A DNA stretch of 64,000 bases from Geosiphon pyriformis uo1 (taxonomy: Eukaryota; Fungi; Glomeromycota). A program made the translations under genes and the position numbers. The notes beneath the pieces were generated by a model. The model was not told the origin of the DNA. It saw nothing but the letters and a program-made list of their open reading frames with translations, and made no database searches. The stretch lies in the NCBI GenBank assembly GCA_016748015.1, contig JAAOMT010000213.1, forward strand, positions 464,485 through 528,484, in the 5' to 3' direction. Each line of letters begins with the position of its first letter. Within the stretch, counting starts at the first letter, position 1. Positions 2,724-53,453 of this stretch are shown here, piece by piece.

Positions 2724-3589
2724 TGTTACAAGTAATTATTTGGAGTCTCAAAGCAAATAACAAACTCATAACTTGGTGCTCAATTAATATAATAATGTTG
2801 ATTGCTAAAGATTGTTTATATCTGAAGGTTTTGGTTGAGTTTTTTGTATAATAGACAGAGATTCAATAGTTGTTTTCAGTAGCCTCCCAGAATCGCAATT
2901 CTATTAATTTTTTTTTAGCTTAGTGGTTGGCAATCCTCTGGTAAGTAATCTGTAATTCTTTTACATGCTTTATTCATTTGCAGAGGTCTTTTATTAGGCA
3001 ATCTTTGATGTCAATAATTCAGCACTTAATCCTTAATCAATTTAGTAAACAACCAAAAAAATAACAAAAGAAAATAAAAAAAACAACGAAAATAAAGAAA
3101 TAAGCCAAGGCAATTTTGCAAATTAGTATTCCATCAATAGCCATAATCAAGAGCTATTGTTTCAGTGTGGTTAAGTATGAATTACTATCAACATAAAGTG
3201 TTGATAATGGAAAGTGGATTCGAGATAATAAATTATTATTTATTGATATTTGTGATGTAAAAAGTTGCTTAGATCAAATCTAAACTGAGAGGTCTCTAAT
3301 TAAAAGATTTTGTTTTTTCTACTTCTAATGCTACTGATATATATACATAATTAAGATTCCTCAATTCCTCAATTCTTCACACCAGGAATCCTGGAATTCT
3401 TGGAATTCTGCAATTTCTTTAAGAAGAATCCTAGAATTCTGAAATCCTGCAATTCCTTGTATGAGAATTCTGAAATTTCTGAAATTCTGCAATTCCTCTG
3501 AAAGGAATCCTGGAATTTTATATTTACTATGGCTACTTCTGATTGGCTAATTTATATGCTAATATACTTTCTATATTCTATGAATAATA
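2724..3589 (-). mobile_element. Solo LTR (F family), reverse orientation
   Basis: Plus-strand termini TGTTA (2724) and TAATA (3585-3589, decayed TAACA); perfect TSD CTAT at 2720-2723 and 3590-3593; reverse-complement similarity to 686-1535. Confidence 0.92.
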
Positions 3590-5724
3590 CTATAAACTTA
3601 TAAATTTTATATTTTATAATAAATATAGTTTTTTTTGCTGGCAGAATCTATTTTTATTTGTTAAAATCTAGTAGTTAAATTGATTATTATAAAATATATT
3701 GAGCTTCTAAATTGATTAAATGTATTAATAATCTTAGAAAAAAAATATCTATTTCATTTAATAATTGTATTTAATTGTTGATAATCTATACAGAAACATA
3801 AAAATCTTTCTTTTTTGAATATTACTATAACAAAAAATGCTTATTTGCTTTTGGTATTTTGTATAAATTCAAGTTTTTTTATTTGGTTTATTTTTTTTAA
3901 TAAACTCATCATTTTATTAATTTAATTAATAGAATTTTAAATAAATTAGTTAAATATTTTTGGTTTTGATTATATGTTAAATAAGATTTGTTTGGCCAAA
4001 ATATTTTTTTTTAATATTACTGCTTTATTTCTTGTTAATAAATTTTTAATATTTTTTTTACTGAGTTTTTTTGGTTTAATTACTAAAAATTAAGTTTTAG
4101 ATACTTTTTCAAATAATTTTTGTACAACTTTAATTTTTTTTATCTAAGATTAAACTAATTGGTTCTCAATTCTTAAAAAAAAATAAACAAGATTTGTATT
4201 TATTGCTTAAAAAGTAAAAAAGTAACTGTATTAATCTTAAATATATAAGTTATATTATCAATAGTTTTATTTTGCTTTCTTTTTAGATTATTGTCTAAAT
4301 ATTTTTTTGATCATATTATAATATAATTAATAAATAATTTTTTTATTAACAATCAATTCTTTATTGTTGGCTTGTATATTATTTAAAAAGTTATTATTAT
4401 TATTAAAAATAGTAAAAGCTAATTCTGTTTTTTTATTTTTATTTATTTTTATTTTTTAGTCTTTAGAATTATTAGAATTATTATTATTACTGTTTTGTTA
4501 TTATTATTAGATTACAGTAAAAGAAACAATACAATGATAATATTTGATTACAATTAATTAAAACTTATTTCAAATTGTAAGTTTACAAAGTTTATAGTTA
4601 AAAAGAGCTTTTATTTTTTTTAATCATTTATTTTCAATAATTATGATATAATTTTTTGTTTTTAATATTACTATATCAATTTTAATACAAATTTTATTAA
4701 TTTAAATAAGAATAATTTTAACACTTTTTAGACTTTTTTTCTTGTTTTTATGAACATTAGTTATCAATTTTTTTAATTGCATCCAAAAAATGTTGAACTA
4801 TAATATTAATTAATAAACTGCTATTTAATATTAGATTTATGTAATAACTAACAACTTAAGTTTTATAAATAAGAGAAATAATATTATTACTAAGAGCTTA
4901 TGTTAATTATTAAAAGTGTTTATTGGTCTTTAATTGTTTTTTTTGAATATTAATAATTTTTTGAAGTTTTTTCAAAACTAAAAATATGTTATAAGTTATT
5001 TAAAAATAATATAAATAGATGTTTCTATCAAATTTTTTACAATTAAATAAAAGCTTAATTTTTGAACAATTTTTAATAATTCTAATTTTGGCAAATTTTT
5101 AAATATTTTTACTTTTAAAGCTTTATTTTTATTGTTAAATATTGAAACAATAATATTGAAATCTAAATTAAATTCCATTTTTTGTTTCTTGAATCTGGTA
5201 TAGTTTAATAGCTTGTTATTGTTTTTTTGTATTTTTGTATTATTATCTGTTAAATTAAAACTAAATAAGAAAATTTTTTTTTAATTTGCATTTTTACTCT
5301 TTAAAAATGTGTCTATTAATTTAAAGATTAATATTTTGTTGTTTTGATTAAAAAAATTTTTCTAAAAAAATTTACATAAGCCTAATTCATATTTGGATAA
5401 GATTTTAATTATTGTTAATTTTATTGTTTGGTTAATTATTATTTTTTAAACTAAAAAAAACATTAAAAAATTATTACAATTTTGTGTCAGATAATCAATA
5501 TTTCTATATTAGTAACAAACAAAAAAGCCTTGTTTTTTGAGTTTTAAGTTATATTAAGATTGCATTATTTGGAAAACTTTTTTTTTCTCTTACCTCCAAA
5601 TAATCCTCAAAGAGCGCATTTTCTGAAAAAGAAGTTTTTTAGTTTTTTTTGTTAAGTTTATATTAACATTTCTTTAACTAATAACCTCTTTGTCGGGAAT
5701 TTAAAAGCTGCTTCTAGCAGTGAT

Positions 5725-10500: not shown

Positions 10501-11309
10501 TGCATGTCTCTCCTCTTTACATTAGTATAGTGTTGTCTTTGTAGATCAGCTCTATAATTGCTATGATGCCGTTTTTAATTAGAAAACTTTTAAGTGCTGG
10601 AAGAGGTTGGATCCTCGTGGTCCGGTTCCTGAGTGGTTTGGTCTTTCTGTCACCTTTCTCAGTAATGTGACTTCTTTTTTTCCTGGTCTATTTCTCCTTG
10701 GGGGTGTTGGTAAGCTTTTGAACATTCTGGAGTCTCAAGAATTTAAGTTGGTATGTGATCAGTTGTCTTGTGTTAGTACTAGTAGTCTGTCTGTTTATAC
10801 GGATGGTTCTCTAAGAAATTTGGGCACCATACAGAGGAAGACTGATGCTGCTGTTTTTTTTGATAACATTGGTTTGGGTTTGGGCATAAGAGTCACTGGC
10901 TTGTTGTCTTCCACTTTGGCGGAGCTACAGGCCATAGCTCTGGCATTGGAATGTGTTCCTTCTCTTAGCTCAGTTTGCTTACACTCTGATAGTCAGACTG
11001 CTCTGGATGTATGCAAATTGGAGCTGTGTTTTATTTGTTTGGATTTTCACATTCAGTGTTGGGTTGAACATCAGCATATTGTGAATATTATTCATTGCAA
11101 AAATTTGAGAGTGAATTGGATTAAAGTGAAAAATCACTCAGGTGTTGTGGAGAATGATTGTGCAGATACCCTTGCTGCTGTTGCCTTTGACTCTGATTGG
11201 CATCTTCTCCCTCGTTTAAAGAACCATTGTCTTTTAGCTGGTAGTGAGCTTGTTTCTGGTAATTCTAGACATTTTGTCTAAAATGTTTTTAGATCAGTTT
11301 ATTGTGCAT
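7525..11309 (+). pseudogene. pol: LINE ORF2, 5' part: APE endonuclease, reverse transcriptase, RNase H
   Basis: APE motifs ATCNIRG, TETKL, SGDFN, IDYIFV, SDH; RT motifs LQDMWKAYDSV, GEVFSLLLW, AFVNDT (decayed FVDD); RNase H motifs VYTDGS, AELQAI, SDSQ, KVKNHSG. Confidence 0.92.
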
Positions 11310-12293
11310 TGTTACCAGACAAAATTAGAAATATTGTTTAGCATAAAATTACCCTTATAAATCTTATTATTAATTAGCATATATTATTATTTCAAATTAT
11401 CACTTATTACATTAGCAAAATGTTCAAAATTATTATTTAATTAATAACTCAATTTGTACATAACACAAATATAACTTAAGTGCGATGATCAATCATGCAA
11501 TACTCTGAAATATGTAACATTCAAAAGTTTGCCAAAATTTGTAAAAATTTGCCAAAATAATTGATAGTTTACTGAAATATCTAATAGTTTGCAGAAATAA
11601 CTTGTAGTTTGCCGAAATGTATTTTTAGTTTAGCAAAATTGTAGAAAAGAGCAAAGTTCAAGTTCATAGAATAGTATTACGACAAGTTGTATAAAAAAAG
11701 AGCTTCTTTCTTTGAAAAAATGTATCTTACTTCAAATTTAATAATTAGAATCATTCTTTACACACAAAAACAAAATAAATATCAAATAAATTCAAAATAC
11801 CAAATTCTTAATTATTTCTCTTAAAATTAACCAATTCCTACTAACAGTTTGAAATTGATTAGCTACCAATTTCAGTAGACTGTTAAAGCACTTCCAGGCC
11901 TGGATCCAAAACGACTTCCATAAATTATCAGTTTTACTTTTTCTTTTACATTTCTTTTATTCTCTTTTTTTTCTTGTTATAAATCATTTGGGTAGTCTAC
12001 AGACAAGAATTCCTGTAGAAGAGTTGACTTTCACAGCAAAGTAACTACACATCTTAGTGAGCTTCCAAATGAGCAATTCCTGGGAAAGAGTTGACGTTTA
12101 CTACAACATAACTATACAAAGTAACTGGCATAGAATTGGTCATTCCACTTATAAGCCCAGCAGTTCAAATTATAGGAAATAATTTGAAGATAAATTCAGT
12201 TATTGGAGGTTCAAATACTTCCCATAATCATGAATTAACAGCATTACAACAAACATACAAGAACTAAAAAGAGACCAAAAACCTCTGGTAACA
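11310..12293 (+). repeat. 5' LTR of element A
   Basis: TGTTA...TAACA; direct repeat of 20214-21197; ~20-bp gtttgccgaaat repeats at ~11525-11650; TATAAAA at 11690. Confidence 0.95.
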
Positions 12294-12295
12294 TT

Positions 12296-12310
12296 TGGTG
12301 CTCTTCTACA
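12296..12310 (+). promoter_or_regulatory. Primer-binding site of A (TGGTGCTCTT)
   Basis: TGG 2 nt after the LTR end; TGGTGCT also occurs in C, D, E and F; complementary to a tRNA ending in AGCACCA (elongator tRNA-Met-like, inferred). Confidence 0.75.
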
Positions 12311-12337
12311 GAAACAACACAGCAAAACAACTTCAAA

Positions 12338-15300
12338 GTGGCGACCACACCAGACACAACAACTCTAGAGTATTACTAATCAATTTACACCCACTGCAAG
12401 CAAAGATTCAACATTCCAGATGGAATTGAAGTTGTCAAGAAATCAGTATACCAATACATTGAAAACTGCATCAACAATTATCTTTTTGGAAATTACAATA
12501 TCTCAAAAGTTAGAAGCAACTTTTACAATAATTTAGTACACTATTCCCAGTTGGAAACTGAAGACCTTAACAGTAAAACACTTGCCACTTACTTTCAAAA
12601 ACTAAATTTTAACATTATCAAGTACTATGAAAAAACATATCTAGTGCAGTCTCAATACTCCATTGATTTTGAATCAGAAACAGAAACAAGCAACAAAGGC
12701 AAACAAAAATTGAAGCAATATTCAAAAACCACCCCAAATACCCCAATACTACCAAAAACAACTGCCAAACACTTACAAACACCTGAACAAGGAACCAGTT
12801 CAAAACTTCCACTTACTATCACATCTTTTTCAGCTTCACTTGCACAGGCACAAACACCTAATTTACCCTTAAATTGATTTGCAAGACTAGAAGATTTTAC
12901 ATCACCCAGAAGTCTCACCAGACAACAAGAACCCCTTCAAACTAGTTCTAATCTCCTTGACTTTCTAGCTGAAAATCGAAGTGAACACTCTGAGACAGCA
13001 GTGAACAAAGAAAACAACTCTGAAATATCTGAAGAAGAATCAATAGACAGTGAAAACAAAGAAGACAAAATGACAGCATACATCACAAAAATCCCTGAAT
13101 TCAATGGAGAAAACATTGAGACCAGTCCCCAAGAATGGCTTGACCAAGTTACTAAAGCTGGAAAGGCAAATGGATGAAATGCTGCCAGAATATTAAGAAC
13201 AATTCTCTACTTTCTTAAAGGAACAGCAGGTGAATGGTTTGAAAACTTAACCACCCCTTTTAATGACTAGACAGCTTTCAAAACTGCCTTCTTAAAACAA
13301 TTCACTGATAACAATACCTCAATCACTCTTTGAAATTGTTTTTGCAATATCAAACAAGAACCCTCCAAATCTGTTATGACTTATATTGGAAAATTCAACA
13401 AACTTCTCAGATGAATTCGCCAACTTGAAACTAATGATTATTATTCTGATGCTCAAATCTTGGATCAATTTATCACTGGTTTAAAAGATAAACTGATTAA
13501 AAAGGTTTGCCCACATGCCCCAGAAGATTTAAACTCTGCCATTCAGCATGCAAAAAAATATAAAATGGCCATGGAAGAAGCCAATCGTACAAAACTCATG
13601 AACTTAGTCATTGGAAAAACCAGCTCAGCAGCTGAAGAGAAAATTGACCAACTCACAAAGAAAGTTGAAAACTATTTCACCAACCAACAACAATAGCAAT
13701 CCCAAAGATATCAACCACCCTAAAGATGGAATCAAAACAGCTTCACATCACTCTCTAATAACCAGTCTCAGAGTTGCCATTACTGTGAAATTCTTGGCCA
13801 CTGGAAAAAAGATTGCAGAAAGCTACAATGAAACCAACAAAATAGGAGTAATCAACATTACCCTCCACCACAACAATTTTATTATCAACCACCACCACCA
13901 GCTTACTATCCACCAAGACCCCAATATCAAAGTAACTATTATCAGCCTGTCTCACAGCCAATTCAACAGCAATACCAACAATTACCCACACAACATTATC
14001 AAGTGCCTGCTTGAAGATTAATTCCACAAAATCAATTTACACCACAAAACCAATACCAAGTAAACAACAATAGAATCAATTCAAACAACCAATTAGTTCT
14101 CCAAAATCCAGCTCAGCCAAAACCCACCTATTATTATACTCAACCTAGCTATTTTATAATACCTGAAGAACAGGATTTTCACCAAACTGCATTCTTGGAA
14201 GGTAGAGCTGCAGCACAACAACAAAACTCTTTCTATACTCCTACCACAATCCCACCAGCCAGAATTGCTGAAAATGCCAACTTTTCAGACATATTCCCTT
14301 TTGAGTTTAAAGCAAATGAGTCACCATTCCTGTTTAGCAATGCGGCCACCAACGAACAAAAAGCAATCACTGCTATGTATACTGAAGCAGAAGTCGAAGG
14401 AAAGGCAATTCGTTTGATCCTAGACAGTGGATTTGCCGGAAGCATCATCACCTACCAGTTAATACAACAGTTAAAGAGAAATGTTGACTGACCAGCTCAA
14501 ACAGTAATTGTTACTGCCGATAGCATAAAAAAGACTCCAGTAGAAAAAATTGACAATTTTTTGTTCACTCTTGATGGAATCACCATTCCAGTCAAAGTTT
14601 TTGTAATAGATGTGCCCCAGTACCAAGCTTTTGTCAGAAATGATTGGCTTCAAAAAGCCAATACTAATCTGAATTGGAAGACACAAGAGTTAACAATCTC
14701 CTACTAAGGACAACATGCCCAGGTACCTGCCACTTGTGGTACATTCAACAAATGCTCCAAAAAAGCCCTGGCTTTTGAATTCGAACTGGAAGAAAAAAAG
14801 CCCATCATTAAAACATTTATGACACTTGGATCAACCTCCAATTGAGCTGATAAAACTAAACAACAGTACTTTTCAACAAATAATTCTCTTGAAACAAAAG
14901 AACTAGTAACAACCGAATGGAATGTTCCCTATTCAAAACCAGAACCACGAAAACAACGCCCTTATATTCCACTCAAATGTAAGGACTGCCACAAGAAACT
15001 CTCTTCAATGGGAGCCTGCATTTCACCTGAAGAAGAATATGAAAATCATACTTGTTATTACTGCAAGGCTTGCCATAGAGAATGATGGGGCCATCTAATA
15101 AAAAGAAGCGGAAAATGGGATAACACCCCTTGTTTAACTTGTGGAGATATGCTACCAGAAGAATGCAATTGAATTGATGTAGCAATGAGAGGAGGAGTCT
15201 GCAATCAGACCTGCCAATATGCTTTATCAATTGCAAAAAAAGTAAAAAGAGAAACACCTTTTAATACGGCATACAACAGTGCTCTCAACAAACTTTATTA

Positions 15301-17971
15301 CTACTTCTATAATGCTGAGATGATTTTTGACCTAGCAATGGCATAAATTAATGGAGCTACCAAAGAAAATGTCCGTCAAATGAAGGAAGCAAAATACATT
15401 GAATACACCATAGAATTAGCTGAATTTGATTATGAAGATGAAGTAGAAGTCTACCACTAAATTGCAAGTCACACTTACCCAACCCAAAAAGCTCAAATTC
15501 AACAATTAGAGCAAATGAACATTAGACTATGCAAAGAATGCATTATGTCTTGTGATGAACAGTAGTGTCCTGAATGCTATGCTCTTAGCATTCCTCTGCC
15601 CAGTAAAAACAATGAGAACAAAATTGAATTTGGAAAACCTGAAGCAACAGAAGAAATTGAAACAACACCCATCTATCTTATCAAAAACCAGCCTGCCTTA
15701 CAACTCAAATACTTCAACAACAATGAACAAGGAATAAAACCCGAAAAAGCACATGAAATTGATGCTGGATATGACCTAAGATATCCAGACAAGGATACTC
15801 TCATTCTCAAACCCAAATCTCTTACAAAAATCAACCTTAAAATTGCTCTCAAAATCCCACCAGGAGCAATGGTTCAAATTGCCTCCCGGTTCTCTCTGGC
15901 AAGCAAAAAAATCAATGTTAGAGGAGGAATAATTGATGCTGGATATACTGGTGACATAACAGTAATACTCTAAAATGAAACTGACAAGCCATTTAAAATT
16001 GAACATGCCGAGAAAATTGCCCAAGCCATTTATTTACCCTTAATCAACATTTCGGGTTTACAATTAGTCAATAAAAGAGAACTATTGAGAAAAAGTAAAA
16101 AAAGAATCCAAGGTTTTGGTTCAATTGGACAATTCACAGTTTTAGTAAACATAGCCCTCAATGAACAGAAAGAATTTCACCAGATTTTACAACTTCCACA
16201 ACCAATTACTATTTCACCCTTTGGAGAATACCCTGAAATTTACACTTGTAAAAAGCTAACAACCACACAACAAATTTTTGAGTCCAATGAACAAATCTGC
16301 TTGGAATATAATATCTCGATTCCAAACATTTATATTCCAAAAGGAACAAAGAAAATCTAAGTTACTTTTTACAATCCCAACAATTTCCCCATAGTTTTAT
16401 TAAATAACTTAGAAATTGGAGTTATTCACAGTAATATCTTTTAACAAGAATTACCCCAAACAATTCCCAATTTCTCTGAAATTATTGGACATTTACTACC
16501 AAAAATCAACCCAAACACCAGCTCTAAAAACTACCATGTTGTTATAGAAAAACTATCTCGAATCAACATAAAACAACTTAAACCACAACAACAAAACCAG
16601 CTTAAAGAGCTAATTGCAGAATTTGCCGATATCTTTGCCGAAAACAACAATAACTTAGGAAGAACTGATTTGGTTCAACACCAAATCTATACAGGAGATG
16701 CCAAACCAAGATAACAACAAGCCTACTGAGTTGCTCCAAAAAGTTACCAATTTATCTGAGAAGAAGTACAACGGATGCTTAACAATAGGCTTATTCAACC
16801 ATCAATGAGTCCATGGGCCTCGCTTGTGGTTCTAGTTAAGAAGAAAAATGGAAAGATATGATTTTGTGTTGATTATCAACAACTCAACAGCATCACCATG
16901 GGAGATGCCTACTCTCTTCCCCAAATTGATGACATGTTAGATGCCCTTGGAAAATCCAAATACTTTTCAACACTAGATCTAGAAAGCGGATACTGGCAAG
17001 TTGCCATGGATCCCAAAGATTGTCCCAAAACAGCCTTCACAACCCAAGAAGAAAACTACAAATTCAATATAATGCCTTTTGAATTATGCAATGCACCAGC
17101 AATATTTCAGAGATTAATAGATATTGTGTACAAAGGACTCCTTTGGAAGTCAGTAGTCATTTATCTTGACGATACTGATATTTATTCTTCATCATTCGAA
17201 TTACACTTAAAACACCTGCAAGAAGTATTTCAACAATTATGAAAAGCAGGACTGAAACTCAACATCGAAAAATTCTACTTTGGAAAAACAAGCTTGGCCT
17301 TTCTTGGTCACATTGTTAGTAAATATAGAATCAAACTGGACCCTGAAAAAATCAGCACTGTCAAAAACTTCAAAACTCTTCAAAATACTACAGAACTAAG
17401 AGGATTTATAGGGTTAGCCTTCTACTATCGGAAGTTTATCAAAGGATTCTCAGAAATTGCAAAACCTCTCAACCAGCTTATCACCAAAAACATCGAATAC
17501 AAATAGACTGCTGAACACCAAAATGCATTTGAAATCCTCAAAGAAAAACTAACCACAGCTCCAATTCTTGCCTACCCAGATTTCAGCAACCAATTCGCGT
17601 TAGCAACAGATGCCTCTTATACTGCCTTTGGTGCCATCCTATCACAGTTAAATGACAATAGAAATGAGCAAGTAATTGCTTATGCTAGCAAAACATTGAA
17701 GCCAGCTGAAAAGAACTACCCTGCAACAGAATTAGAAACTGCAGCAGTAATCTGGGCCTTATATCACTTCAATCTTTACCTCAGACCCAAAGAATTTGAT
17801 ATTATCACTGATAATATTGGACTCAAATGGCTTCAAAACAAAAACACTCAGCTGAATGCCAAACAAATCCGATGGACAGAATTTTAAGCCAACTACCAAT
17901 ACATTGTACATCACAAATCAGGAAAACTCCACACCAATGTTGATTGTTTTTCAAAAATGAGACAAGATTAG
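12338..17971 (+). pseudogene. gag-pol: Element A Gag-Pol: N-extension, capsid, CCHC, protease, Cys-rich module, dUTPase, RT, RNase H; one frame with nonsense mutations
   Basis: ORF fragments 12551, 13460, 14195, 16085, 16898, 17294 and 17696 share one frame; CHYCEILGHWKKDC, LILDSG, FSTLDLESGYWQ, IYLDDT, LATDAS; stop TAG at 17969-17971. Confidence 0.92.
15735..16130 (+). pseudogene. dut: dUTPase domain in Pol of A
   Basis: Trimeric dUTPase motifs DAGYDL, IASRFSL, GGIIDAGYTG, IAQAI, GFGS. Confidence 0.9.
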
Positions 17972-18017
17972 AACATAAAAACAACACCTATTTGAATTAA
18001 CAACAAAACAACAAACA

Positions 18018-19403
18018 ATGAATTCTGAAAACTACAACAATCTTAAACAATATCTGGAGACATTAACAATCCCAACAGATTGGTCCCCAGATAAAAAACA
18101 TTGGTTACAACAACAAGCCAAACAATACTTCTTATACAACAACATTATTTATTATTAAAACTTCAGAAACCAAGACAATCCGCTCAGATTAATACAAGAA
18201 CATAAAAAAAAAACCATTTTATATAACATGCACTCAGACCTTTTATCAGCACATCTAGGAAAAGACAGCACCACCCAGAGAACACTAGCATATTATTTTT
18301 GGCCTCAAATAAGAAAAGGCATTCATGAATATGTTAAGTCTTGTAATAGTTGTTAAAGAAGAGGAGGAACTCGCCCTACAGAACCTTTAAACTTAATCAA
18401 AGTTGGACAGCCATTTGACCGAGTTGGTATCGATTTAGTTGAACCACTCCCTATCACAAACCAAGAAAACCATTATATTGCAGTAGCTGTAGACTATCTC
18501 ACCAAATAGCCTGAAGCCAGAGTCATTCAATGAGCAGATGCGAAATCAGTAGCAAACTTCATCTACAAAGACATCATTTGTAGACATAAATGCCCAATAG
18601 AACTTTTATCTGATCAAGGAACACATTTCGTGAACAATTTAATCCAGGAAATTTGTGAACAATTTAATGTCAAGAGACCATTATCTTTGCCCTACCATCC
18701 ACAAACAAATAGACTTGTAGAACATTTTAACAGAACATTGTGTAAATCATTAGCCAAAGTCTCAACTGATTTTAAGCAAGAATGGGATCTCTTTATTCCA
18801 TCAGTGTTACTGGCATATAGAACACTAAAACAAGATATCACAAAACACACACCATTTGATTAAACTTATAGAAGGACAGCAATATTACCAATTAGTTTCA
18901 CTGTAGAAACATACTCAACACAACCAATCGATAAAAACAATTTCCAGGAAACACTACAACAAAAAGCCTACACTCTGCTTAGCACATTGGAAGGAAAACG
19001 ACAAATAGCAGCCACCCATATTAAACACTCTCAAGCTTAACAAAAAGAACAGCATGACGACAAATTGCCTCCAGTTACCAATGGATTTAAAATTGGAAAC
19101 AAAGTTCTCTTACACAGAACTAAAGCTGAAAAACAATGGAGTGGAAAATTTGAAAATAAATGAGATGAACCATTCTTTATCTATAAAGTCCTAAACAACA
19201 GATCATATAAGCTAAGACTTGATAACAAAATCCTAGCAAAAGTTGCACATGGAGATCGTTTGAAACACTATAATTCTAGAAACAATCCTGAACCATTAAT
19301 TCTACAAATTGGTACACATTCCCTTTTAATCAATCCTGAAGATATTCCCCGAAAATTAGAACCAATAGTTGACATTGAACAACCTCCCAACTTGAACACT
19401 TAA
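18018..19403 (+). pseudogene. int: Stand-alone integrase ORF of A (~461 codons, with stops)
   Basis: Own ATG 46 nt after the Pol stop, in another frame; HHCC region, VGIDLV, SDQGTHF, YHPQTN, GPY/F-like C-terminus; no chromodomain. Confidence 0.9.
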
Positions 19404-19525
19404 TTTGAATTTATCATTATAGTTATATCATTATAATTTAGAAACAATCTCACAAAAACAAAACAAAAATAACATAAAAACCCATACACCAAAAATAATT
19501 TTCTTTTATTTTCAAATCTCTTATA

Positions 19526-20245
19526 ATGTCTATTCCTCAAAACATTCAACAATTATCCCAAAAACTAATGTTAGCTTTAAAAACAATACTCGAATTATCT
19601 ATTACTGTTATTAGAAACCACATTAATTATACCCAAACAGAAGTAGTTACAAATTTAGCTCCAAATGCACAAAAATATCACCTGTATAAGAAGAACACAA
19701 GAAGTTATTCTGGAATTCACCTGCCAGAACTTCTAAAGCTTGCTTTAAGAGAAAACTTAATGCTCACTTCTATTAGTATTCCACCGAATGCTACTATTCA
19801 ACAAAAACTTCAACTGTGTCTTAATGAAAAAAACTATGACTATACTCCAATATATAAATATTTCTACATTGGAAAAACACTTCATGAACGAAAACAGGAG
19901 CTTATAGCAGCAAACCTCACAAAAAAAGCTATTCGGAAACAACTCCACAATAAATTCAAGACAACAGCTGGACCTACAAACAGTTATTATAAACTAAGAG
20001 CTGCTCTTAGACTTTATGACCTATTCCACACCTGTGAAAACGTCCTACAAAACCCAATTTTACAGCCTTTGAAGATTCAATACATTGGAAAGCTCACAGA
20101 ACTGAAATTTCAACAATTTTCAGACCAAATTTCTTCAATAATTTTGGATTATTATCTGAAAATTACAGACAGTACTTGGACTTTGATGGAGCTCAATCTT
20201 AAAGAGGAGGTTATGTTACCAGACAAAATTAGAGATATTGTTTAG
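19526..20245 (+). CDS. Accessory ORF3 of element A, 239 aa, unknown function (open frame)
   Basis: Uninterrupted ATG-to-stop ORF between integrase and the 3' LTR; homologous to the ORFs at 28097-28804, 53454-54089 and 60216-60567; runs through the PPT into U3. Confidence 0.8.
   Translation: MSIPQNIQQLSQKLMLALKTILELSITVIRNHINYTQTEVVTNLAPNAQKYHLYKKNTRSYSGIHLPELLKLALRENLMLTSISIPPNATIQQKLQLCLNEKNYDYTPIYKYFYIGKTLHERKQELIAANLTKKAIRKQLHNKFKTTAGPTNSYYKLRAALRLYDLFHTCENVLQNPILQPLKIQYIGKLTELKFQQFSDQISSIILDYYLKITDSTWTLMELNLKEEVMLPDKIRDIV
20201..20213 (+). promoter_or_regulatory. Polypurine tract of A
   Basis: AAAGAGGAGG-TTA immediately before the 3' LTR. Confidence 0.85.
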
Positions 20246-21197
20246 CATAAAATTACTCTTATAAATCTTATCATTAATTAGCATATATTATCACTTTAAA
20301 TTATCACTTATTACATTAACAAAATGTTCAAAATTATTATTTAATTAATAACTCAATTTGTATATAACACAAATGTAACCTAAGTGCGATGATCAATCAT
20401 GCAATACCCTGAAATATGTAACATTTAAAAGTTTGCCAAAATTTGTAAAAATTTGCCAAAATAATTGATAGTTCACTGAAATATCTAATAGTTCACAGAA
20501 ATAACTTGTAGTTTGCTGAAATGTATTTTTAGTTCAGTGAAATTGTAGAAAAAAGCAAAGTTCAAGTTCATAGAATAGTGTTATGACAAGTTGTATAAAA
20601 GAAGAGCTTCTCTTTTCAAGAAAATGTATCTTACTTCAGATTTAATAATTAGAATCATCCTTTACACACAAAAACAAAATAAATATCAAATAAATTCGAA
20701 AAGCCAAATTCTTAATTATTTCCCTTGAAATTAACCAATTTCTACTAACAGTTTGAAATTGATTAGCTACCAATTTCAGTAGACTGTTAAAGCACTTCTA
20801 GGCCTGGATCTGAAACAACTTTCATAAATTATCAGTTTTACTTTTTCTTTTACATTTCTTTTATTTTCTTTTTTTTCTTGTTATAAATTATTTGGGTAGC
20901 CTACAGACAAGAATTCCTGTAGAAGAGTTGACTTTCACAGCAAAGTAACTACACATCTTAGTGAGCTTCCAGACAAGCAATTTCTGGGAAAAAGTTGACG
21001 TTTATTACAACGTAACTATATAAAGTAACTGGCATAGAATTGGCCATTCCACTTATAAGCCCAGCAGTTCAAATTATAGGAGATAATTTGAAAATAAATT
21101 CAGTTATTGGAGGTTCAAACACTTCTCATAATCGTGAATTAACAGCATTAAAACAAACATACAAGAGCTAAGAAAAGACCAAAAATCTCCAGTAACA
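20214..21197 (+). repeat. 3' LTR of element A
   Basis: Direct repeat of 11310-12293. Confidence 0.95.
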
Positions 21198-22024: not shown

Positions 22025-22891
22025 TGTTACAGTTTAAGAATTTAGCAAAAGAATCATAAAAATAATATAAACTATTCAATCATAATATAGCACAGTAATA
22101 ATCTTAAAAAGGTAATGATTAACATAGTAGCAAACCCCATCTTGCAATAGTGGCAAGCACCAGTTCACAATAGCAGCCAACACCAACTGGTGATAGCAGC
22201 AAACACCAGGTTGAAATATCAAAAAGAAAGTATTACAATATGTTTTTTCGTAAAACTACAAACATGTATATATACAGTAGCTTTAATATTGAAAAAAGTC
22301 AATCAAGTAATAAAAATCATAACTTATCAAGCAATAAATCCAATTTATTCAACAAACTCCACTTTAAATCGTATTTTTAAATTAAATATCTCAAGAAACC
22401 TTTAAATCAAAAAAAAAAATGAAAAAAAATATTTAAAACTGAATTATCACAACTCCAAAGTAATAAGAAACTCACTTGTGTTAATTATTGAATAAAACTA
22501 TCATTCATCAGTTGAATTTCTTGGAAAAGTAATTCCTGATCAACATTGCTACTAATTGATAAAAGCTTTATTGTGAGAATTAAGAAAAGCACTAAAGACC
22601 ATTAACATTCCGTGTTTCTAGATTAGAGAAACACATCAGGCAATTGCAAGGATAGCCTCAGAGAAGACTCCAGACAGTGGGTAGATTTCAGTTCAGCCTC
22701 TGAGAAGGAATACATAAACACACACAACAATCAGGAATTGAAAAATAACTTACATTATGACACTAAAGAGAAAGCCTTCAGTATAACAGTGCTATTATCA
22801 CACAAATAGAATTAAAGAACTCACAAGAGACTGATTGCAATTAAAATGGGATATCGACAATTAAATATAACAAGAAAACCATCCCATAACA
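22025..22891 (+). repeat. 5' LTR of element B
   Basis: TGTTA...TAACA; repeat of 38805-39678; tagtagcaaacacc-type repeats at ~22125-22215. Confidence 0.93.
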
Positions 22892-22973
22892 TTTGGTGAA
22901 CCCTACGAAAAAAAAAAATCAAAAAGAAAATAATAATTAGCAATAATTCATTGCTAAAAAGGAAGAGACAAAA

Positions 22974-25900
22974 GTGGTGACAAAAACCCCTAATCTTATT
23001 GTTCTTGAATTTTGCTGTGCTATTTACACACAAAATCAAAGTGATCTTGGATTACCAGAAGAGTGTTGTCCAGCAGAATCTGCCTTTATTTATTATATCA
23101 ATGCCAGAATAAATTATCATATAGGAAAGGAAGAAGAACCACACAATGCAAAACTTGGATTGTATAAAGAATTATTACAATACACTACAAAGGAAGTAGT
23201 AGTAATAGCTGCAACTATTGTCAAAATTCATTGAAAAATTGAACAATACGCCAATAAAAATTTTCTAATATCTACAGAAAACACTAGGGAACGCACCAAC
23301 AAAACCAAAGAAAATTTAGAAACTAATCAGGAAAGTAACCAGCAAAAACTAGGAACACCTGCTCAAACACCAAAGAAAACTGTTATTCAATCAATAAAAA
23401 AACAACATATTTATTTACCAGAAAATAAATCATACCATTTTTCACCAGAAAATAAGATACAAATTCCATTAGGAGCTGCATCATTATTAACATTAACTCC
23501 ACAAACACCAAAAACTCCTAGTTATATTAATAAAATTAAACAATATAACTGGGAAGACATACCAATTACAGGAGAATATTCATCACTATTCTAAAACCCT
23601 CTTTTTCAGCCAAAATTTGGAATGGGGTTTGAAAACCGTGAAGAGAAGTCTGAATTGAAATCCAAAAAAAAGATCAGTGAAAAAACAATCACAAGACTGG
23701 TCACTGGAACAAGCAGCCAGTCCAAAAACTAAAAAACTTGTGATCAAGAAGAAGAACCGGATATAAGGGAAGCCATCTTTAGGAATGCTCAAGGAAATAT
23801 CATCCCACCTTCTCTTAGACCAATAAGTCTACCAGCAAAAAATGGCAATAAAATAACCACACCATACATTGCAAGACTAACAGATTTCTTAGGAGAAGAA
23901 GAAGAAACAGATGTGTACACATGGTTCAAAGAAGCACAAAAAGCCATCCAGGCAAATAACTGGAATGACCAAAGAGCAATTCAAACATTACTTTTCTTCC
24001 TGAAAGGCACAACTAACTCATGGTATCAAAGCCTGAAAACAAAACCCACAAGCTTTGCTGAATTTAAAAATGCACTTCTGGAGTATTTTAGTGACCCAAA
24101 TGCCATAATCCAACTACAGAACAAATTCAATACTATTAAGCAAGGTACTGGTGAAACTGTCACCCAATACCTTGCTCAATTCAATCAAATTCGCCGTCAG
24201 ATTGAAATGATTGAACAAGGATACTACACTGATTCTCAGGTTTTAAATCAGTTTATTAGAAGATTAAAAAGCAGCATTTTAGGAAGAGTATGTCCTGCCT
24301 ACCCTAATTCCTTACCAGAAGCCATTACGCTTACCAGAGCCCTTGAATCAGCTGAGAAAGAAGCTAACCATAGTCAAATGGTTAATATAGTAATGGAGAA
24401 AAATAAGACAGAAACATTAGAGAAAAAAGTAACGCAATTAAGAGAGGAACTCTTTAAGAAAATAGAAAGTTATCTCATCCTGAATCCAAGAAAAAATACA
24501 TACCAAAAAAGACGCAGCCAGAAAGTCAGTGACAGTCAAAATAATCGCTCATTGTGCCAGGAATTCAGAACAGAAACACACACCTGCCATTTTTGCAAAT
24601 GCGTAGGATATTTGATTAGTCAATGTCGAACACGAATAATGCAAGAAGCACACAAAAATAATTATTACACGCCACCCCAAATGCTCAGAAACCAGTACAT
24701 GCCAATACTATGCCAATATCCTACCACGTATCAAAATCAAGGAACTTACCAGCAACAGCCCATGATAGCCAATCTGAATTGGCATCCCAAGGCCCGAAAT
24801 CAGCCTATGTGGAACCATAATGCATTGGTCCAGAGGAATCTAAACTGCACCAGAACCAGTTAGCAAACCAATCCAAACTACCAAAATTATTAACAAACTT
24901 ACCTTAATATACCAGAAAATCTGATCATCAGAAACAATGACAGTAGAAACATAAACAGAACCAAAAATTTCTTTAACAAATTGAGCCAAACAATACCACC
25001 AGCAGTTGCCACCAAAGATAGCAGCCTCGCAGCTATTTTTCCTTTTGAATTAGAAGAAAACAAGACTATGTTCAGTGGAGCAGCATTGGACAAAAAATGC
25101 CCAATTACTGCTATGTATACAGAAGCCACTGTAAACAATACTCCAATCAAACTTATCTTAGACAGTGAATCCACTAAAAGCATTGTAATGCTTCAACTTG
25201 TAAACCAATTGGGTTTCAAAGTTGATCATGCCGTGATGTCCCAAATCATAACAGCCAATGGAAGTACAAAGCTGCCTCATGGTGAAATTGACTCATTTCC
25301 TTTCAAAATTAACAGCATAGTAATACCTACAAAAGTATTAGTAATAAACGCTACACAATATTAAGTATTAGTAGGGAATAACAGGCTAACAAAAGCCAAT
25401 GCCACCTTAGACTGGACCACCCAAGAGCTTCTGATCAATTATAATGGCCACCAGGCCAGAATTTCAGCCACTTGTGGCCACTTCCAAAAACCCAGTGCCA
25501 ACCAAAGACCTACCTTCAAATTTGAGGAAAATCCAGCACTACCAGCCATTGAAATTTATCAACTTTTTTGTGCTAATGACCAAAGAACAGGACTACCAAC
25601 CATACCAACATGAACCAGCGAAGAAAGATCTGAATGGAACCAGATAAGTCCACAAAGAAACCACCAGCGATGCAGACCAAAACTAGAATGCTCAGTTTGC
25701 AAAAAGAAACTCTCGTCTATGGCTATGTGCAGTGCACCAGATGAAGACCCAAGAAACCCCATCCACTACTATTGTAACCATTGTAACAAAGAAAAATACA
25801 GTTACCCAGAAAGACATGGAAAATGAGACGAGGAATTATGTCTCACTTGTGGAGAACTGTTACCAAGAGAGTATGACTGGAACGACATACTAAGCAGAGG

Positions 25901-27103
25901 AGGAATGTGTGATGCAACTTGCCAATACATGATCCTCATCTGTGACTGGGTAAGAGGAGGAACACCATTCAAAACAGCATTCAACAGAGCATTAAAAAGA
26001 CTACAGCACTACTCACACGACGAGGACGAGTTGTACAACACCACATAAGCCAAAGTAAGAGGAGGAACCACCAAAGAAATACGATATTAGAAAGAGTTAG
26101 CCAAAGTAGCCGATGAAGTTGCCAGCTACAACATGTTCAACCCAGTGGATAAATTCTAGGACTACTACCAACAACTATGCCCCATTCAACAAGAGCAAGA
26201 ACAATACCTTGCCCAAATCAACACTTACTTCTGCAAAAACTGTCTTATCCCGTGCCAAAATCAGTACTGTAAAGAGTGTTAAGATGAAAGGGACTTAGAA
26301 AGAAAAATAGAAATTAAGAATCAGCAGTCTCAAAATCAATCAATAAACCAACAAGACTTACCTAATGGTCCCGAGTCAGAAAAATTTGTAGCTTATACTG
26401 ACCTAGAACAGATGATTGACATTTGATACTTTGACAATGGGCACTTAGAAATAATACCTGAAAGAGCCCATCCAACTGATGCTGGATTTGATCTATGTTA
26501 TCTAGAAGACCAATCCACAATGTTACTACCCAGGAGCATTACCAAAATTGACCTAAAAATAGTGGTTGAAATTCCGCCAGGAATAATGGTTCAAATAGCA
26601 TCATGATCAAGCCTCGCGAAAAAAGGAATAAGCATTCAAGGAGAAGTAATTGACTCCAGATAAACTAGAAATTTGATGGTTTTGCTACAGAACAATTCAG
26701 AAAAGCCTTATACCATTGAATCTAAGGAAAAGATTGCACAAGCAATTTTCCTACTATTGGTAAAAATTGGGAAATTTGTGCCAATGGAAAATTATAAGGA
26801 ATTGTCACAAACAATGAGAGGAACTTTTGGTTTTGGATTGACAGAAAAAGGAATTGAAGCAAATATCACTAAAACAATAGAGGAAAAAGGCAAAGTAATT
26901 AAAACTGAGCAGTCTATCATGCTCCTACCATATGGAAAATCAGAAATAAGAATAAAAAAGACAATTAAAGAAAAAGACCTAATATTTAAGCCCTACTCAG
27001 AAACTTGTCAACAGTTTCTCATAGGACTTACTAACCTTTTTATTCTAGCTGATAAAGCTCAATAGATAAAAATTCCTATTGCAAACACTACAGAAGAACC
27101 CGT
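22974..27103 (+). pseudogene. gag-pol: Element B Gag-Pol, 5' part (Gag, protease, Cys-rich module, dUTPase ~26450-26850)
   Basis: Opens at AAAGTGG; capsid ANNWNDQRAIQ; CHFCKCVGYLISQC; LILDSE; CSVC..CNHC..CLTC; DAGFDL, IAQAIF, GTFGFG. Confidence 0.9.
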
Positions 27104-28116
27104 TGTTACTGGAGGTTTTTGGTCTCTTTTTTTAAATGTTGGTAATGTTGATTTGCTGTGAATTCACGTTCTCAGGAAGTAGTTGAACCTCCAATAACTG
27201 AATTTATCTTTAAATTATCTTTTATAATTTGAACTTGCTGGGCTTATAAGTAGAATGGCCAATTCTGTGCCAGTTACTTTATGTAGTTATGTTGTAGTAA
27301 ATGTCAACTCTTTTTCAGGAATTGCTCGTCTGGAAGCTCACTAAAATGTATAGTTACTTTGTTGTAAAAGTCAACTCTTCTACAGGAATCTTGTTTGTAG
27401 ACTACCCTAATAATTGTAATAAGAAAAGAAAAGAAAAATAAAAAAAATGTAAAAAAAATAGAATTTTGTCAAGAGAAACGTTTTCTATTCAGGCCTGGAG
27501 TCACTAACAGTTTACTGAAATGGGTAGCTAATCAATTTTAAAACATTAGTTGGGTTTTGAGGATTTTCTAAGTGCAATAATTTAAAGAGTTTGGTTTTTC
27601 GAATTATTTGATATTTATTTCTTTTTGTGTGTGTAGCAATGGTTCTAAGTGATAAATCTAAAGTAAGATACATTTTTCAGAAGAGAAAAGCTCTTTTTTT
27701 ATACAACTTGTTGTAGTACTAGTCTATGAACTTGCACTTTTTCTCTTTGCTCAAATTTCAGCAAACTAAAGATACATTTTGATGAACTACAAGTTATTTT
27801 GCTGAACTATTGATTAATTTGGGTGAACTATTCATAATTTTGACGAATTTCTGTAAATTTCAGCAAATTTCTTATAAATTTCGGCAAATTTCTGTAAATT
27901 TTGGCGAATTTTTAAATGTTACAAAGTTCAAAGTATTGTGTAATTTAATCATCCTACTTTCTGTTATACTAATTAGATTATTTTAATTGAATTGTGATAT
28001 GTGATAATTGATTAAATAATAAATGATAATTTAAAATAATATTAATATACTAATGAATTATAGAAATTATAAGAGTAATTTTATGCTAATTAATAGCTAA
28101 AATTCTATTGGTAATA
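27104..28116 (-). repeat. 3' LTR of element C
   Basis: Repeat of 36037-37029 with one extra ~20-bp U3 unit. Confidence 0.93.
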
Positions 28117-28804
28117 TAATCTCCTCCTCAAGACTGAGCTCCATCGAAGTCCAAGCACTATCTGTAATATTGAGATAGTGATCTAAAATAATTAAAGTAA
28201 TCTGGTCTGAAAATTGTTGAAATTTCAGTTCTGTGAGTTTGCCAATGTATTGGACTTTTATTGGTTGCAGTATTGAATTTTGTAGAACATTTTCACAAGT
28301 ATTAAACAAGTCATAGAGTTTAAGAGCTGCTCTAAGTTTGTAGCGAGTGTTTGTTGGTCCAGCTGCTGTTTTGAATTCATTGTGAATTTGTTTTTGTATA
28401 ATTTTAGGAGTGAGATTTGTTGCTTCAAGTTCCAGTTTTTGTTCATAAAGTGTTTTTCCAATTTGAAAGTATTTATAGATAGGGGTGTGTTCATTGTTCT
28501 GTTCATTAAGAAGTAGTAGAAGTTTTTGTTGCATTGTAGCATTTGGTGAAATGTCAATAGGGGCAATTAAAAGATTTTTTTTTAGTGCCTGCTTCAAAAG
28601 TCTTGGTAATCTATTCTCAGAGTAACTTCTTGTTTTTCTTTTATAGGGGTGATAGTTCTGTAAATGATTTGCTACTAAGACTGTAGTTTCTTTCTGAATG
28701 TAATTAATTTGACTTCCATTAATCGTTATAGATAAGTTAGGGAGTGTTTTCAAGGCTAACATTAATTTTTGGGATATTTGTTAAATATTTTGGGGAATAA
28801 TCAT
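28097..28804 (-). pseudogene. Accessory ORF3 of element C (one nonsense codon near the N-terminus)
   Basis: MIIPQNI*QISQKL followed by a 221-aa open frame; clear homolog of A ORF3. Confidence 0.8.
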
Positions 28805-28946
28805 GATAAAATTGACTAATTATGAAAAGAGAAAATAAAGAAAATTATTTTTGGATATGGGGTTTTTATTTGTTTTTGGGTTTGGGTGTTTTGTAATTAT
28901 TTACTATTTTTGTCTTTGTGTTTTTATTAAAAAATTATTGTAAAAT

Positions 28947-30332
28947 TTAAGTGTTCAAGTTTGGTTGTTGTTCTATTATAATTATTGGTTCTAAATTTTA
29001 GGGAATATCTTCAGAATTAATTAAAGGGGAATGTATACCAATTTGTGGAATTAATGGTTCAGAATTGTTTCTGGAATGATAGTGTTTCAATCTGTTTCTA
29101 TGTGCAACTTTTGCTAATATTTTGTTATTAAGTCTTAACTTATATGATCTATTGCCTAGAATTTCATAAATATAAAATGGTCCATCCTATTTGTTTTCAA
29201 ATTTCCCACTCCATTGTTTTTCAGCCTTAGTTCTGTGTAAGAGAACTTTATTTCCAACTTTAAATTCGTTGGTAATAGATGGTAATTTGTTGTCATGTTT
29301 TTCTTTTTGTTGAGCTTGGGAATGTTCAATATGAGTTGCTGCTATTTTTTTTTTTCTTCCAGTGTACTAAGAAGAGTGTAGGCTCTTTTTTGGAGTGTCT
29401 TTTGAAAGTTTTCTTCATTGATTGGTTGCACTGGGTATGTTTCCACTGTGAAATTAATTGGTAATGTTGCTGTCCTTCTATAAGTAAGATCAAATGGTGT
29501 GTGTTTCATAGTATCTTGTTTTAGTGTTCTGTATGCTAGTAACACTGATGGAATAAAAATATTTCATTTCTGGTCAAAATTTGTTGAGACTTTGGCTAAA
29601 GATTCACACAATGTTCTATTGAACTGTTCTACAAGTTCATTTGTTTGAGGGTAATAAGATAATGATAGAGGTCTTTTGACATTGAACCATTCACAAATTT
29701 TTTGTATCAAGTTGTTCACAAAATGTGTTTTTTGATCAGATAAGAGTTCAATTGGGCATCCATGTCTACAGATAATGTCTTCATAGATGAAATTTGCTAC
29801 TGATTTTGCATCTGCTCTTTGGATGGCTCTAGCTTCAGGCCATTTGGTAAGATAATTCACTGCAACTGCAATATAACGATTTCCTTGGGTTGTGATAGGT
29901 AATGGTCTGACTAAATCAATTCCAACTCTGTCAAAAGGTTGTCCAACTTTGATTGGATTTAGAGGTTCTGTGGGGTGAGTTCTTCCTCTTCTTTGACAAT
30001 TATCACAAGATTCTACATATTGTTAAATGTTTTTTTGCATGTGGAGCCAAAAAATAATGTTCAAGGGTTCTTTGAATTGTTTCCTCTTTTCCCAAGTGTG
30101 CTAAAGACAGATCTGTGTACATGTTGTATAAAATTGTTTCTTTTTCATTCTCTTGTACTAATCTGAGTGGCTGGTTTGGTTTTCTGTGATTTTTATAATA
30201 GATTTTGTTCTGGTGTATGAAATATTGTTTTAATTGGTGTTGTAAGTGGTGTTTTTCACTTGGAGACCAGTTTTTTGGCATGGTAAAAGTCTCCAAATAA
30301 TTTTTAAGATTGCTGTAGTTTCTGAGATCCAT
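28947..30332 (-). pseudogene. int: Stand-alone integrase ORF of C
   Basis: Starts MDLRNYSNLKNYL; YLTKWPEA, SDQKTHF, YPQTN; same 1386-nt length as in A. Confidence 0.9.
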
Positions 30333-30389
30333 TCTTGTTTGGTTATTTTGTTGGTAAGTTGGTAAATTGTAGTGGAATTGTTGTTGGTA

Positions 30390-35991: not shown

Positions 35992-36036
35992 TTTGAATTT
36001 GTTGTTGCTGTGTTATTTCTATGGGAAAGCACCAAA

Positions 36037-37029
36037 TGTTACCAAAGGTTTTTGGTCTCTTTTCTTAAATATTGGTAATGTTGATTTGCTGTGAATTCAT
36101 GTTCTCAGGAAGTAGTTGAACCTCCAATAACTGAATTTATCTTTAAATTATCTTCTATAATTTGAACTTGCTGGGCTTATAAGTAGAATGGCCAATTCTG
36201 TGCCAGTTACTTTATGTAGTTATGTTGTAGTAAATGTCAACTCTTTCCCAGGAATTGCTTGTCTAGAAGCTCACTAAAATGTATAGTTACTTTGCTGTGA
36301 AAGTCAACTCTTCTACAGGAATCTTGTCTGTAGACTACCCTAATAATTGTAATAAGAAAAAAAATAAAAAATAAAAGAAATATAAAAGAAATAGAATTTT
36401 GTTAAGAGAAACGTTTTCTATCCAGGCCTGGAGTCACTAACAGTTTACTGAAATTGGTAGCTAATCAATTTCAAAACGTTAGTTGGGTTTTGAGGATTTT
36501 CCAAGTGCAATAATTTAAAGAGTTTGGTTTTTCGAATTATTTGATATTTATTTTTTTTTGTGTGTGTAGAAATGGTTTTAAGTGATAAATATAAAGTAAG
36601 ATACATTTTCCAAAAGAGAAAAGCTCTTTTTTTATACAACTTGTTGTAGTACTAGTCTATAAACTTGCACTTTTTCTCTTTGCTCAAATTTTGGCAAACT
36701 AAAAATACATTTTGATGAACTACAAGTTATTTCACTGAACTATTGATTAATTTGGGTAAACTATTCATAATTTCGACGAATTTCTGTAAATTTCGGCGAA
36801 TTTCTTATAAATTTCGGTGAATTTTTGAATGTTACAAAGTTCAGAGTATTGTGTAATTTGATCATCCTACTTTCTGTTATATTAATTAGATTATTTTAAT
36901 TGAATTGTGATATGTGATAATTGATTAAATAATAAATGATAATTTAAAATGATATTAATATACTAATAAATTATAGAAATTATAAGGATAATTTTATGCT
37001 AATTAATAGCTAAAATTCTACTGGTAACA
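36037..37029 (-). repeat. 5' LTR of element C
   Basis: TGTTA/TAACA termini, followed on the minus strand by TTTGGTGCT. Confidence 0.93.
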
Positions 37030-38609: not shown

Positions 38610-38638
38610 AAATCACCAACCCACCCGCCACAACAATA

Positions 38639-38791
38639 ATGAACATAATAACAACCAACAGTATTGAATGATTTACCAACTCACAATTTTAAAAATTACA
38701 ACAACAAATTAATAACACAGTATTGAACCACTATAGTAACTTAGAATTTAATGAAGAAATTAACTTCAATTTTGATGGAACTCAATCTTAA
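38639..38791 (+). pseudogene. Residual ORF of B: integrase-type start fused to the last ~45 codons of ORF3
   Basis: MNIITTNSIE*FTNSQF*KLQQQINNTVL...FDGTQS* aligns with the ORF3 C-termini of A and E; integrase absent. Confidence 0.6.
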
Positions 38792-38804
38792 AAGGAGTAG
38801 ATAA

Positions 38805-42815: not shown

Positions 42816-42876
42816 TTTGGTGCTTTCTGTGAGATTATAAATTCACAGAAACAGAGCACCCCAGAAATACACAAAA

Positions 42877-45708: not shown

Positions 45709-45771
45709 TTTGGTGCTTCCTGTAAGGTATAATCCTACAGAGAACCAGCACCAACTACACTCATCCCAAAA

Positions 45772-52004: not shown

Positions 52005-52034
52005 AAACATTCCAACCCAAAAATATAACAAAAG

Positions 52035-53394: not shown

Positions 53395-53453
53395 AATTAA
53401 ACAATTAGAGAGTATATAAAGACACAGTATACGTGATAAAAGCAATCAAGAAA

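Follow-up and report, generated by a model that had tools for sequence, protein, structure and literature searches.

How does a long terminal repeat (LTR) retrotransposon obtain its integrase when the integrase is encoded outside the polyprotein? This question is raised by a 64,000-nucleotide stretch of the genome of the fungus Geosiphon pyriformis uo1 (assembly GCA_016748015.1, contig JAAOMT010000213.1, positions 464,485 to 528,484 of the forward strand; the whole stretch is called the window below, and positions are counted from its first base). Nested LTR elements, here named A to F, and solo LTRs make up the window, with C lying inside B and D inside E. Element A (11310-21197, plus strand) is a decayed LTR retrotransposon with three open reading frames (ORFs): Gag to RNase H, an integrase starting at its own ATG, and a third ORF (ORF3), a layout in which the stop codon after RNase H and the integrase ATG are conserved. 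We read A as a decayed copy of a Ty3/gypsy-derived lineage in which integrase is a gene with its own AUG, likely translated from the full-length RNA by ribosomes which restart or enter there, and give this reading a probability of about 0.57.

At the junction in A (17968-18020) the RNase H stop codon TAG is followed by a 47-nt AUG-free spacer and the integrase ATG, which lies in another frame and opens a stand-alone integrase of 461 codons (18018-19403) with H2C2, rve and weak SH3 domains. The RNase H stop is found at the homologous place in A to E, and is followed by an integrase ATG in C (27104-37029, minus strand, 76% identity to A; stop at 30390, ATG at 30332, ORF3 ATG at 28804), D (44864-54988, plus strand; stop at 52004, ATG at 52035, ORF3 ATG at 53454) and E (41764-61627, plus strand; stop at 58800, ATG at 58811, with a remnant of ORF3). 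The spacers of 47 nt in A, 57 nt in C, 30 nt in D and 10 nt in E are A/C-rich and unstructured, and represent all three frame offsets; in C and D the integrase is in the RNase H frame, with two stops in D. In B (22025-39678, plus strand) the RNase H stop at 38609 is only 196 nt from the LTR, and this interval holds a C-terminal piece of ORF3, the integrase having been deleted, while F (61632-63617, plus strand) consists of a 5' LTR and the Gag N-terminus and is cut at 63618, where an LTR of the A/C type follows on the opposite strand. The original prediction for this locus had described the order shared by A, C, D and E, the deletion in B and the truncation of F, and each of these is borne out by the positions given here.

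The same layout was found outside Geosiphon. A search with the integrase of A among proteins of like length, in which fused forms are invisible, gave 452 matches, and among the 120 listed there are 117 with an initial Met and 95 which start exactly at the Met of A; the named species among the matches listed are Rhizophagus irregularis and R. clarus. Metagenome DNA was represented by the best 80 of 578 confirmed loci (designated L001 etc.), whose hosts we infer to be mycorrhizal fungi. RNase H lies upstream of integrase in 47 of these 80 loci, and all 47 have a stop before the integrase, with an ATG at the homologous place in 46 (11, 19 and 16 loci in the three frames); the other 33 have no RNase H in view, mostly because the contig ends. 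All intact, stop-free relatives with RNase H in view are split, and the ordinary continuous Pol-integrase named by the original prediction as its possible undoing was thus not what these loci contain. Its proposal that the lineage is old, diversified and equipped with an integrase ORF of its own gains from the presence of metagenome loci and Rhizophagus homologues far beyond the Geosiphon genome, and the lineage likely belongs to Glomeromycotina fungi. In viral contigs there were just four weak integrase matches and no match to the RNA motif described below.

The sequence between RNase H and integrase varies greatly in length, from -20 to 1600 nt across loci. In 11 of 45 unique junctions stop and start overlap or are no more than 2 nt apart, TAATG being among the forms seen, and in 34 of the 45 they lie within 100 nt. 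Spacers are poor in AUG, with 12 in 29 spacers compared to 36.6 in shuffled sequences and none at all in 24 of the 29, and the integrase start has a purine at -3 in 59/68 and a G at +4 in 60/68 sequences. Eight of the 29 spacers have no AG whatsoever, and 12 of the 45 junctions lack a YAG nearer than the next upstream AUG. Locus L074 carries two extra cistrons, a Nudix and deoxynucleoside kinase ORF and another, as cargo between Pol and integrase (L074:7092-8629), linked by TAATG and an ATG/TGA overlap.

In some loci, chiefly of a sub-lineage that has a long Pol tail, the integrase ATG is preceded by a stem-loop with an A-rich internal loop (L022, L026, L030, L061 and 20 more, 40-70 nt before the ATG, for instance L061:4453-4509; also L085). 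The stem-loop pattern was matched 18 times in the 80 loci, each time 26-36 nt ahead of the integrase ATG, and a covariance model has 24 matches (20 of which were in the training set), all ending at the integrase ATG. Across an alignment of 20 copies, both partners have changed in 10 of 13 pairs (0/500 shuffles); as 15 of the 20 copies were picked for inner-stem pairing, this is circular for the inner part, while in the unselected outer stem both partners have changed in 4 of 5 pairs. A contig from a prokaryote bin has the stem-loop about 35 nt before the integrase Met. Rfam gave no match at gathering score for 13 loci, and none at E up to 10 for the 181 nt around one motif. The stem-loop is a candidate translation-start or protein-binding element. 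A single 19-bit motif match in the window lies inside the RNase H of D, about 270 nt before the ATG, and was not counted. A second motif, unstructured and T-rich (TTGA(C/T)TT(T)AAC-like), was seen no more than 35 nt from the integrase ATG in seven loci (L001, L004, L007, L015, L017, L019 and L020) and in A (17991-18001).

Taken together, the conserved stop and ATG, the overlaps with TAATG, the AUG-poor and the AG-free spacers, the start context, the chained cistrons of L074 and the placing of the stem-loop solely before the integrase ATG point to restart or internal entry on genomic RNA as the source of integrase, at slightly better than even odds. Ribosomes would translate Gag-Pol, in Geosiphon as a single ORF that likely starts at GUG together with a shorter AUG-started form, and terminate after RNase H, whereupon a minority would resume at the integrase AUG. 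Resumption may be helped by a stop-start overlap, by a short unstructured AUG-free spacer as in the window, or by a structured element before the AUG as in the sub-lineage with the stem-loop. The amount of integrase would thereby be set well below that of Gag and RT, and integrase, lying outside the polyprotein, would need its own way of joining the particle or the cDNA. There are precedents: UAAUG couples stop and start at 2.5-4.4% in the fungal virus CHV1 (PMC2699510), and reinitiation in SART1 needs RNA structure downstream of the stop (PMC10275272).

Several observations weigh against translation by restart or entry. Viral reinitiation after long ORFs is described as dropping beyond about 30 nt (PMC10275272), and most spacers, including those of A and C, are longer than this, with 11 of 45 junctions exceeding 100 nt. 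A YAG lies nearer than the next upstream AUG in 33 of the 45 junctions, and the TAG stop of A could itself be a splice acceptor. The depletion of AUG also fits a capped subgenomic RNA which starts upstream, and the integrase-ORF3 spacers are not depleted (26 AUGs, 32.2 expected). The motif model did not find the stem-loop in the elements of the window, and the ranking of the 80 loci by likeness to stand-alone integrases favours split forms. Finally, there is a genuine fusion protein, P0244 (44% identity), which the integrase tree places amid the split forms.

Retroviral accessory genes and foamy-virus Pol are expressed by way of subgenomic RNAs, which are spliced or arise from internal promoters, and the strongest alternative is that integrase and ORF3 are made in the same way from the same layout, which we consider possible but clearly less probable. 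The strong start context and AUG-free spacers would suit a 5'-proximal AUG, the YAGs mentioned above would be usable as acceptors, there are long spacers, AUGs are not depleted ahead of ORF3, and the T-rich motif near the ATG could be a branch point or promoter element. However, the acceptor would be at no fixed place and would be absent from the AG-free spacers, the stop-start overlaps and the chained cistrons of L074 would serve no purpose under splicing, and the stem-loop places paired RNA right next to the AUG.

We think it improbable that integrase is instead fused to Pol across the junction, be it by stop readthrough, frameshifting or removal of a small intron. The integrases of C and D are indeed in the RNase H frame, and relatives do appear to recode elsewhere: an in-frame TGA-CTA, which we take to be a readthrough-like context, lies between protease and RT in three related loci (L008:2498-2503, L013:2882-2887 and L057:3290-3295), with an in-frame TGA at this position in L074 as well. 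Yet the junctions occur in each of the three frame offsets and some overlap by -20 to -1, D has its two stops, and the position of the integrase Met is invariant. As a control for fused forms we searched among longer proteins (711 matches, 120 listed); the closest fused proteins among the matches listed are four NCBI gene models of Cetraspora and Rhizophagus (P0241-P0243 and P0248) in which RT is joined to integrase, and nearly all others have at most 40% identity. Three of these four models lack the RNase H end motif and two adjoin split loci in trees, and for these reasons they are likely to result from predicted introns that bridge the stop. The remaining suggestion, that decay of old but ordinary gypsy copies has produced the split as an artefact, would suit the 35 internal stops and the observed/expected CpG ratio of 0.23 in A, but is refuted by the split in all intact stop-free relatives, by spacer lengths differing by tens to hundreds of bases, and by an excess of third-position changes in integrase and ORF3 which is missing from the LTR.

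This excess was obtained by comparing A with C, with differences at codon positions 1, 2 and 3 of 0.19, 0.11 and 0.28 in integrase, 0.21, 0.15 and 0.38 in ORF3, 0.19, 0.15 and 0.27 in the Gag N-terminal region, and 0.18, 0.13 and 0.31 in the Cys-rich module, as opposed to 0.17, 0.16 and 0.17 in the LTR. With the third-position excess confined to sequences outside the LTR, the codon pattern indicates that each ORF was under purifying selection. The in-frame stops of A (28 in 1876 Gag-Pol codons and seven in 461 integrase codons) are attributed to decay because C has a sense codon at 31 of the 35 positions; the other copies in the window are decayed as well.

Whether the split arose once is a separate matter, for which we used trees built only from unnamed or auto-named matches, with support quoted as Shimodaira-Hasegawa (SH)-type values. 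In a FastTree tree of RT-RNase H (139 rows), 35 split rows fall in a 49-row group together with 14 fused rows (SH 95), and in an IQ-TREE analysis of 54 rows for the same region three or five changes are needed, none of them forced by a strong branch. When RT-RNase H and integrase were combined, 27 split rows lay on one side and 26 fused rows on the other (SH approximate likelihood-ratio test (SH-aLRT) 87, unstarred), in a tree which excludes seven near-duplicate loci, B, the four gene models and most fused rows. In the integrase-only tree P0244, with the model P0243, and two more fused proteins are found among split rows. The window elements form their own branch with support of 98-100. A single origin of the split is therefore neither shown nor rejected, and reversals or several origins are possible. 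Eight loci (L026, L032, L037, L055, L056, L061, L071 and L075) have a Pol which runs 217-341 amino acids (aa) past RNase H as an acidic, Cys/His-rich tail, with no Pfam match in the two tested; the tail occupies the usual place of integrase, which suggests an origin of the split through inserted cargo.

Upstream of the junction, a single frame in A runs from the primer-binding site (PBS) to the TAG at 17968-17970 and spans Gag through RNase H (12338-17970), with its first in-frame ATG at 13070. It comprises a Gag N-terminal region (12338-13069, about 245 codons, homologous in A to F and with a weak coding signature), a Gag capsid domain with CCHC knuckle (13208-13816; PF03732, PF19259), an aspartic protease with DSG motif (14351-14701), a Cys-rich module with coding constraint (14870-15625, in A to E), a dUTPase (15740-16123; PF00692, E 2.9e-18), and RT with YLDD motif and RNase H (16835-17896). 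The Gag N-terminal region and the Cys-rich module have no match in Pfam. In place of an ATG, the frame has a candidate start GUG at 12338-12340 in the context AAAGTGG, a sequence found in frame about 40-80 nt past the LTR in all six window elements with no AUG before it. Between the GUG and the Gag Met there are three AUGs in A, one in C and five in B, versus 8, 9 and 13 expected, while D, E and F are not depleted. From these features the GUG is the likely start of Gag-Pol in the window elements.

The GUG extension in the element order of the original prediction is thus likely for the window, but does not extend to the relatives, in which the Gag N-terminal domain opens at an AUG shortly past the PBS and many split gag and pol by a change of frame. 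Likewise, the dUTPase and Cys-rich module are present in the Geosiphon copies but were found in 0/21 relatives' loci spanning protease to RT, which is best explained if they are later cargo of the Geosiphon branch. Relatives also have a His/Cys-rich Gag N-terminal domain (L004:2998-3990, L015:299-, L032:301- and L075:6341-), unlike that of Geosiphon and without a Pfam match in the one tested.

ORF3 of A (19526-20245, plus strand) is a stop-free frame of 239 aa which crosses the polypurine tract (PPT) and ends inside the 3' LTR. Among the 120 listed of 204 protein matches, 119 are Geosiphon pyriformis proteins with 62-91% identity, and the other one is marked as the window's own. Of 35 ORFs directly following integrase, 31 join one BLAST component with the ORF3 of A and C; L002 connects the window with the relatives (E 3e-16), and A and C are weak matches (E about 2e-5, 15 sequences searched) to an independent profile of the family. 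A profile search gave 612 clusters at 50% identity. Integrase is followed by 700 nt or more in 35 loci, of which 20 match the profile, three more are linked by BLAST and 12 have no ORF3. The conserved third ORF of the original prediction is hence a widespread family, but not a universal one, the best explanation being that ORF3 is dispensable in some sub-lineages. Its place is taken by a Nudix ORF in L023 (1945-2886) and by a helix-turn-helix protein in L015. D has a homologous but decayed ORF3 (z 5.9 to A, z 14.8 to L002), while E has only an N-terminal piece without clear start, which matches D (z 8.2) and not A (z 1.1). The idea that ORF3 is kept intact by the host was dropped, as the copies in C and D carry stops.

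The core of ORF3, about 145 aa, is predicted to be all-helical (pLDDT 92), and 89 of 146 family members have a pI above 8. No membrane helix was found, with a maximal 19-residue hydropathy of 1.19 in A and only one of 146 members above 1.8; given this and the soluble, all-helical model, ORF3 is not an env protein. No Pfam family was matched by more than one of 109 members, there was no usable Atlas match, Foldseek gave no match at E 0.001 in PDB or BFVD, and the best VIA Z scores were 5.7 and 5.3 despite the confident model, which does not establish a new fold. A weak match of the C-terminal helices to the uS13 (H2TH) profile (E 0.19), absent from the listed fold matches, hints at a nucleic-acid-binding helix motif. 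We predict ORF3 to be a soluble, mostly basic helical accessory protein, which most likely binds nucleic acid or the particle.

The remaining parts of A are those of an LTR element. Its LTRs (11310-12293 and 20214-21197) are 984 bp each, share 93.4% identity and have TG...CA ends; the PBS-like site (12294-12306) has a TGG start two bases after the LTR, and the PPT (20201-20210) is preceded by a GGAGCTCAAT-like motif, which is common to A to E and several relatives. Each window element has a TGG-starting PBS and a PPT, and there are five LTR pairs with TG...CA ends, 87.5-94.7% identical. Their divergence (Kimura two-parameter distance 0.056-0.144) consists nearly entirely of transitions (63 to 2 in A) and was left unused for dating. 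The elements are flanked by GC-rich target-site duplications of 4 bp, whose two copies agree exactly in B and E, differ by one transition in C, in D and at the solo LTR at 686, and differ by two transitions in A. No tRNA gene was found in the window, nor was a priming tRNA matched to the PBS. The U5 is predicted to pair with the PBS as a hairpin in A, C, D, E and F (12268-12306, 45650-45718, 42766-42825 and 62409-62477) despite their differing LTRs, and such pairing could regulate priming.

Element A is inserted just past an RNase H ORF (10583-11281; PF00075, E 1e-11) which is probably part of a non-LTR element. The LTR of F starts next to the target duplication of E (61628-61632), hinting at a shared target preference. 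Two solo LTRs of the D/F type are located at 686-1535 and around 2724-3591, one of which sits within an older, very AT-rich gypsy RT remnant (RT pieces at 2364-2720 and 3643-3867, minus strand).

Compared to known systems, the elements resemble Ty3/gypsy (Metaviridae) in their LTRs, PBS, PPT, Gag and the order PR-RT-RNase H-integrase, and among solved structures their RT-RNase H is closest to Ty3 (E 1.7e-86). While the gypsy integrase is a domain of the pol polyprotein (PMC3248453), here it lies outside Pol, there is a conserved third ORF without env features, and the Geosiphon copies have Gag and Pol in a single frame; as integrase is not in Pol, we file the lineage as a gypsy-derived variant and not as a canonical member. 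A dUTPase at the same position between PR and RT is known from Tmt1 of Tuber and from elements of Postia and Phanerochaete, for which the available text describes no separate integrase (PMC2864245, PMC6431247). The window elements are not chromoviruses, as no chromodomain was found at the C-terminus of A's integrase at E up to 1, nor in the Pfam lists of the 120 integrase homologues listed. They also lack the Gmr1-like order with integrase before RT, and 13 proteins with that order form their own distant group in the tree. Unlike the env of errantiviruses and retroviruses, ORF3 is not a membrane glycoprotein.

In foamy viruses the whole Pol is separate from Gag, with a spliced RNA and its own AUG, and accessory ORFs precede the 3' LTR. 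The elements share with them an enzyme gene apart from Gag with its own AUG and an accessory ORF before the 3' LTR, but in the present elements the separation falls between RNase H and integrase, Gag and RT are in one frame, and there is no env. The match of RT to foamy-virus-type Pol (E 1e-36) is far below that to Ty3, and with no membrane span in ORF3 the label "complex-retrovirus-like" of the original prediction survives as an analogy only. With CHV1, SART1 and caulimoviruses the elements have in common UAAUG-like overlaps, a downstream ORF on a long RNA and structure near the junction; those systems are not LTR retrotransposons, and the spacers here often exceed the known range (PMC2699510, PMC10275272).

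Ginger1 DNA transposases have been linked to Athila/Tat integrases (PMC2836005). They resemble our elements in that their integrase has its own start Met in roughly the same position, as well as in their TG...CA ends and GC-rich duplications of 4 bp, and differ in having terminal inverted repeats, a C-terminal protease domain and no RT (PMC2836005), whereas here the integrase is found in LTR elements beside RNase H, both in the window elements and in the 47 loci with RNase H in view. In the integrase tree two Ginger1-like and three plant Tat-type proteins, labelled from their Pfam domains, fall in the same larger group as the split integrases (SH-aLRT 99), inside which the tree gives no firm branching order. 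We found no description of a three-ORF layout with split integrase in the literature, although entries in Repbase, GyDB, Dfam or the library of PMC11952901 may already show the ORFs; that study, in which LTR elements make up 41.2% of the Geosiphon genome, makes no mention of integrase in its available portion. A bolder scenario, which we hold to be rather doubtful, is that of an ancient operon-like polycistronic LTR clade in mycorrhizal fungi with a new structured RNA start element or stop-start coupling, where an ORF3 of new fold would enable the integrase start or bring free integrase to the particle, and where the stand-alone integrase gene would be a stepping stone between gypsy and Ginger1.

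LTR retrotransposons and retroviruses deliver integrase as part of Gag-Pol, and a lineage without this rule must dose and deliver its integrase in another way. It offers natural, short and testable eukaryotic signals for stop-start coupling and internal starts, including a new covarying RNA motif, as well as an abundant ORF3 protein family without known fold match and a candidate link to the Ginger1 transposases. It probably also explains mis-annotated "hypothetical proteins" and intron-bridged gene models in the genomes of mycorrhizal fungi.

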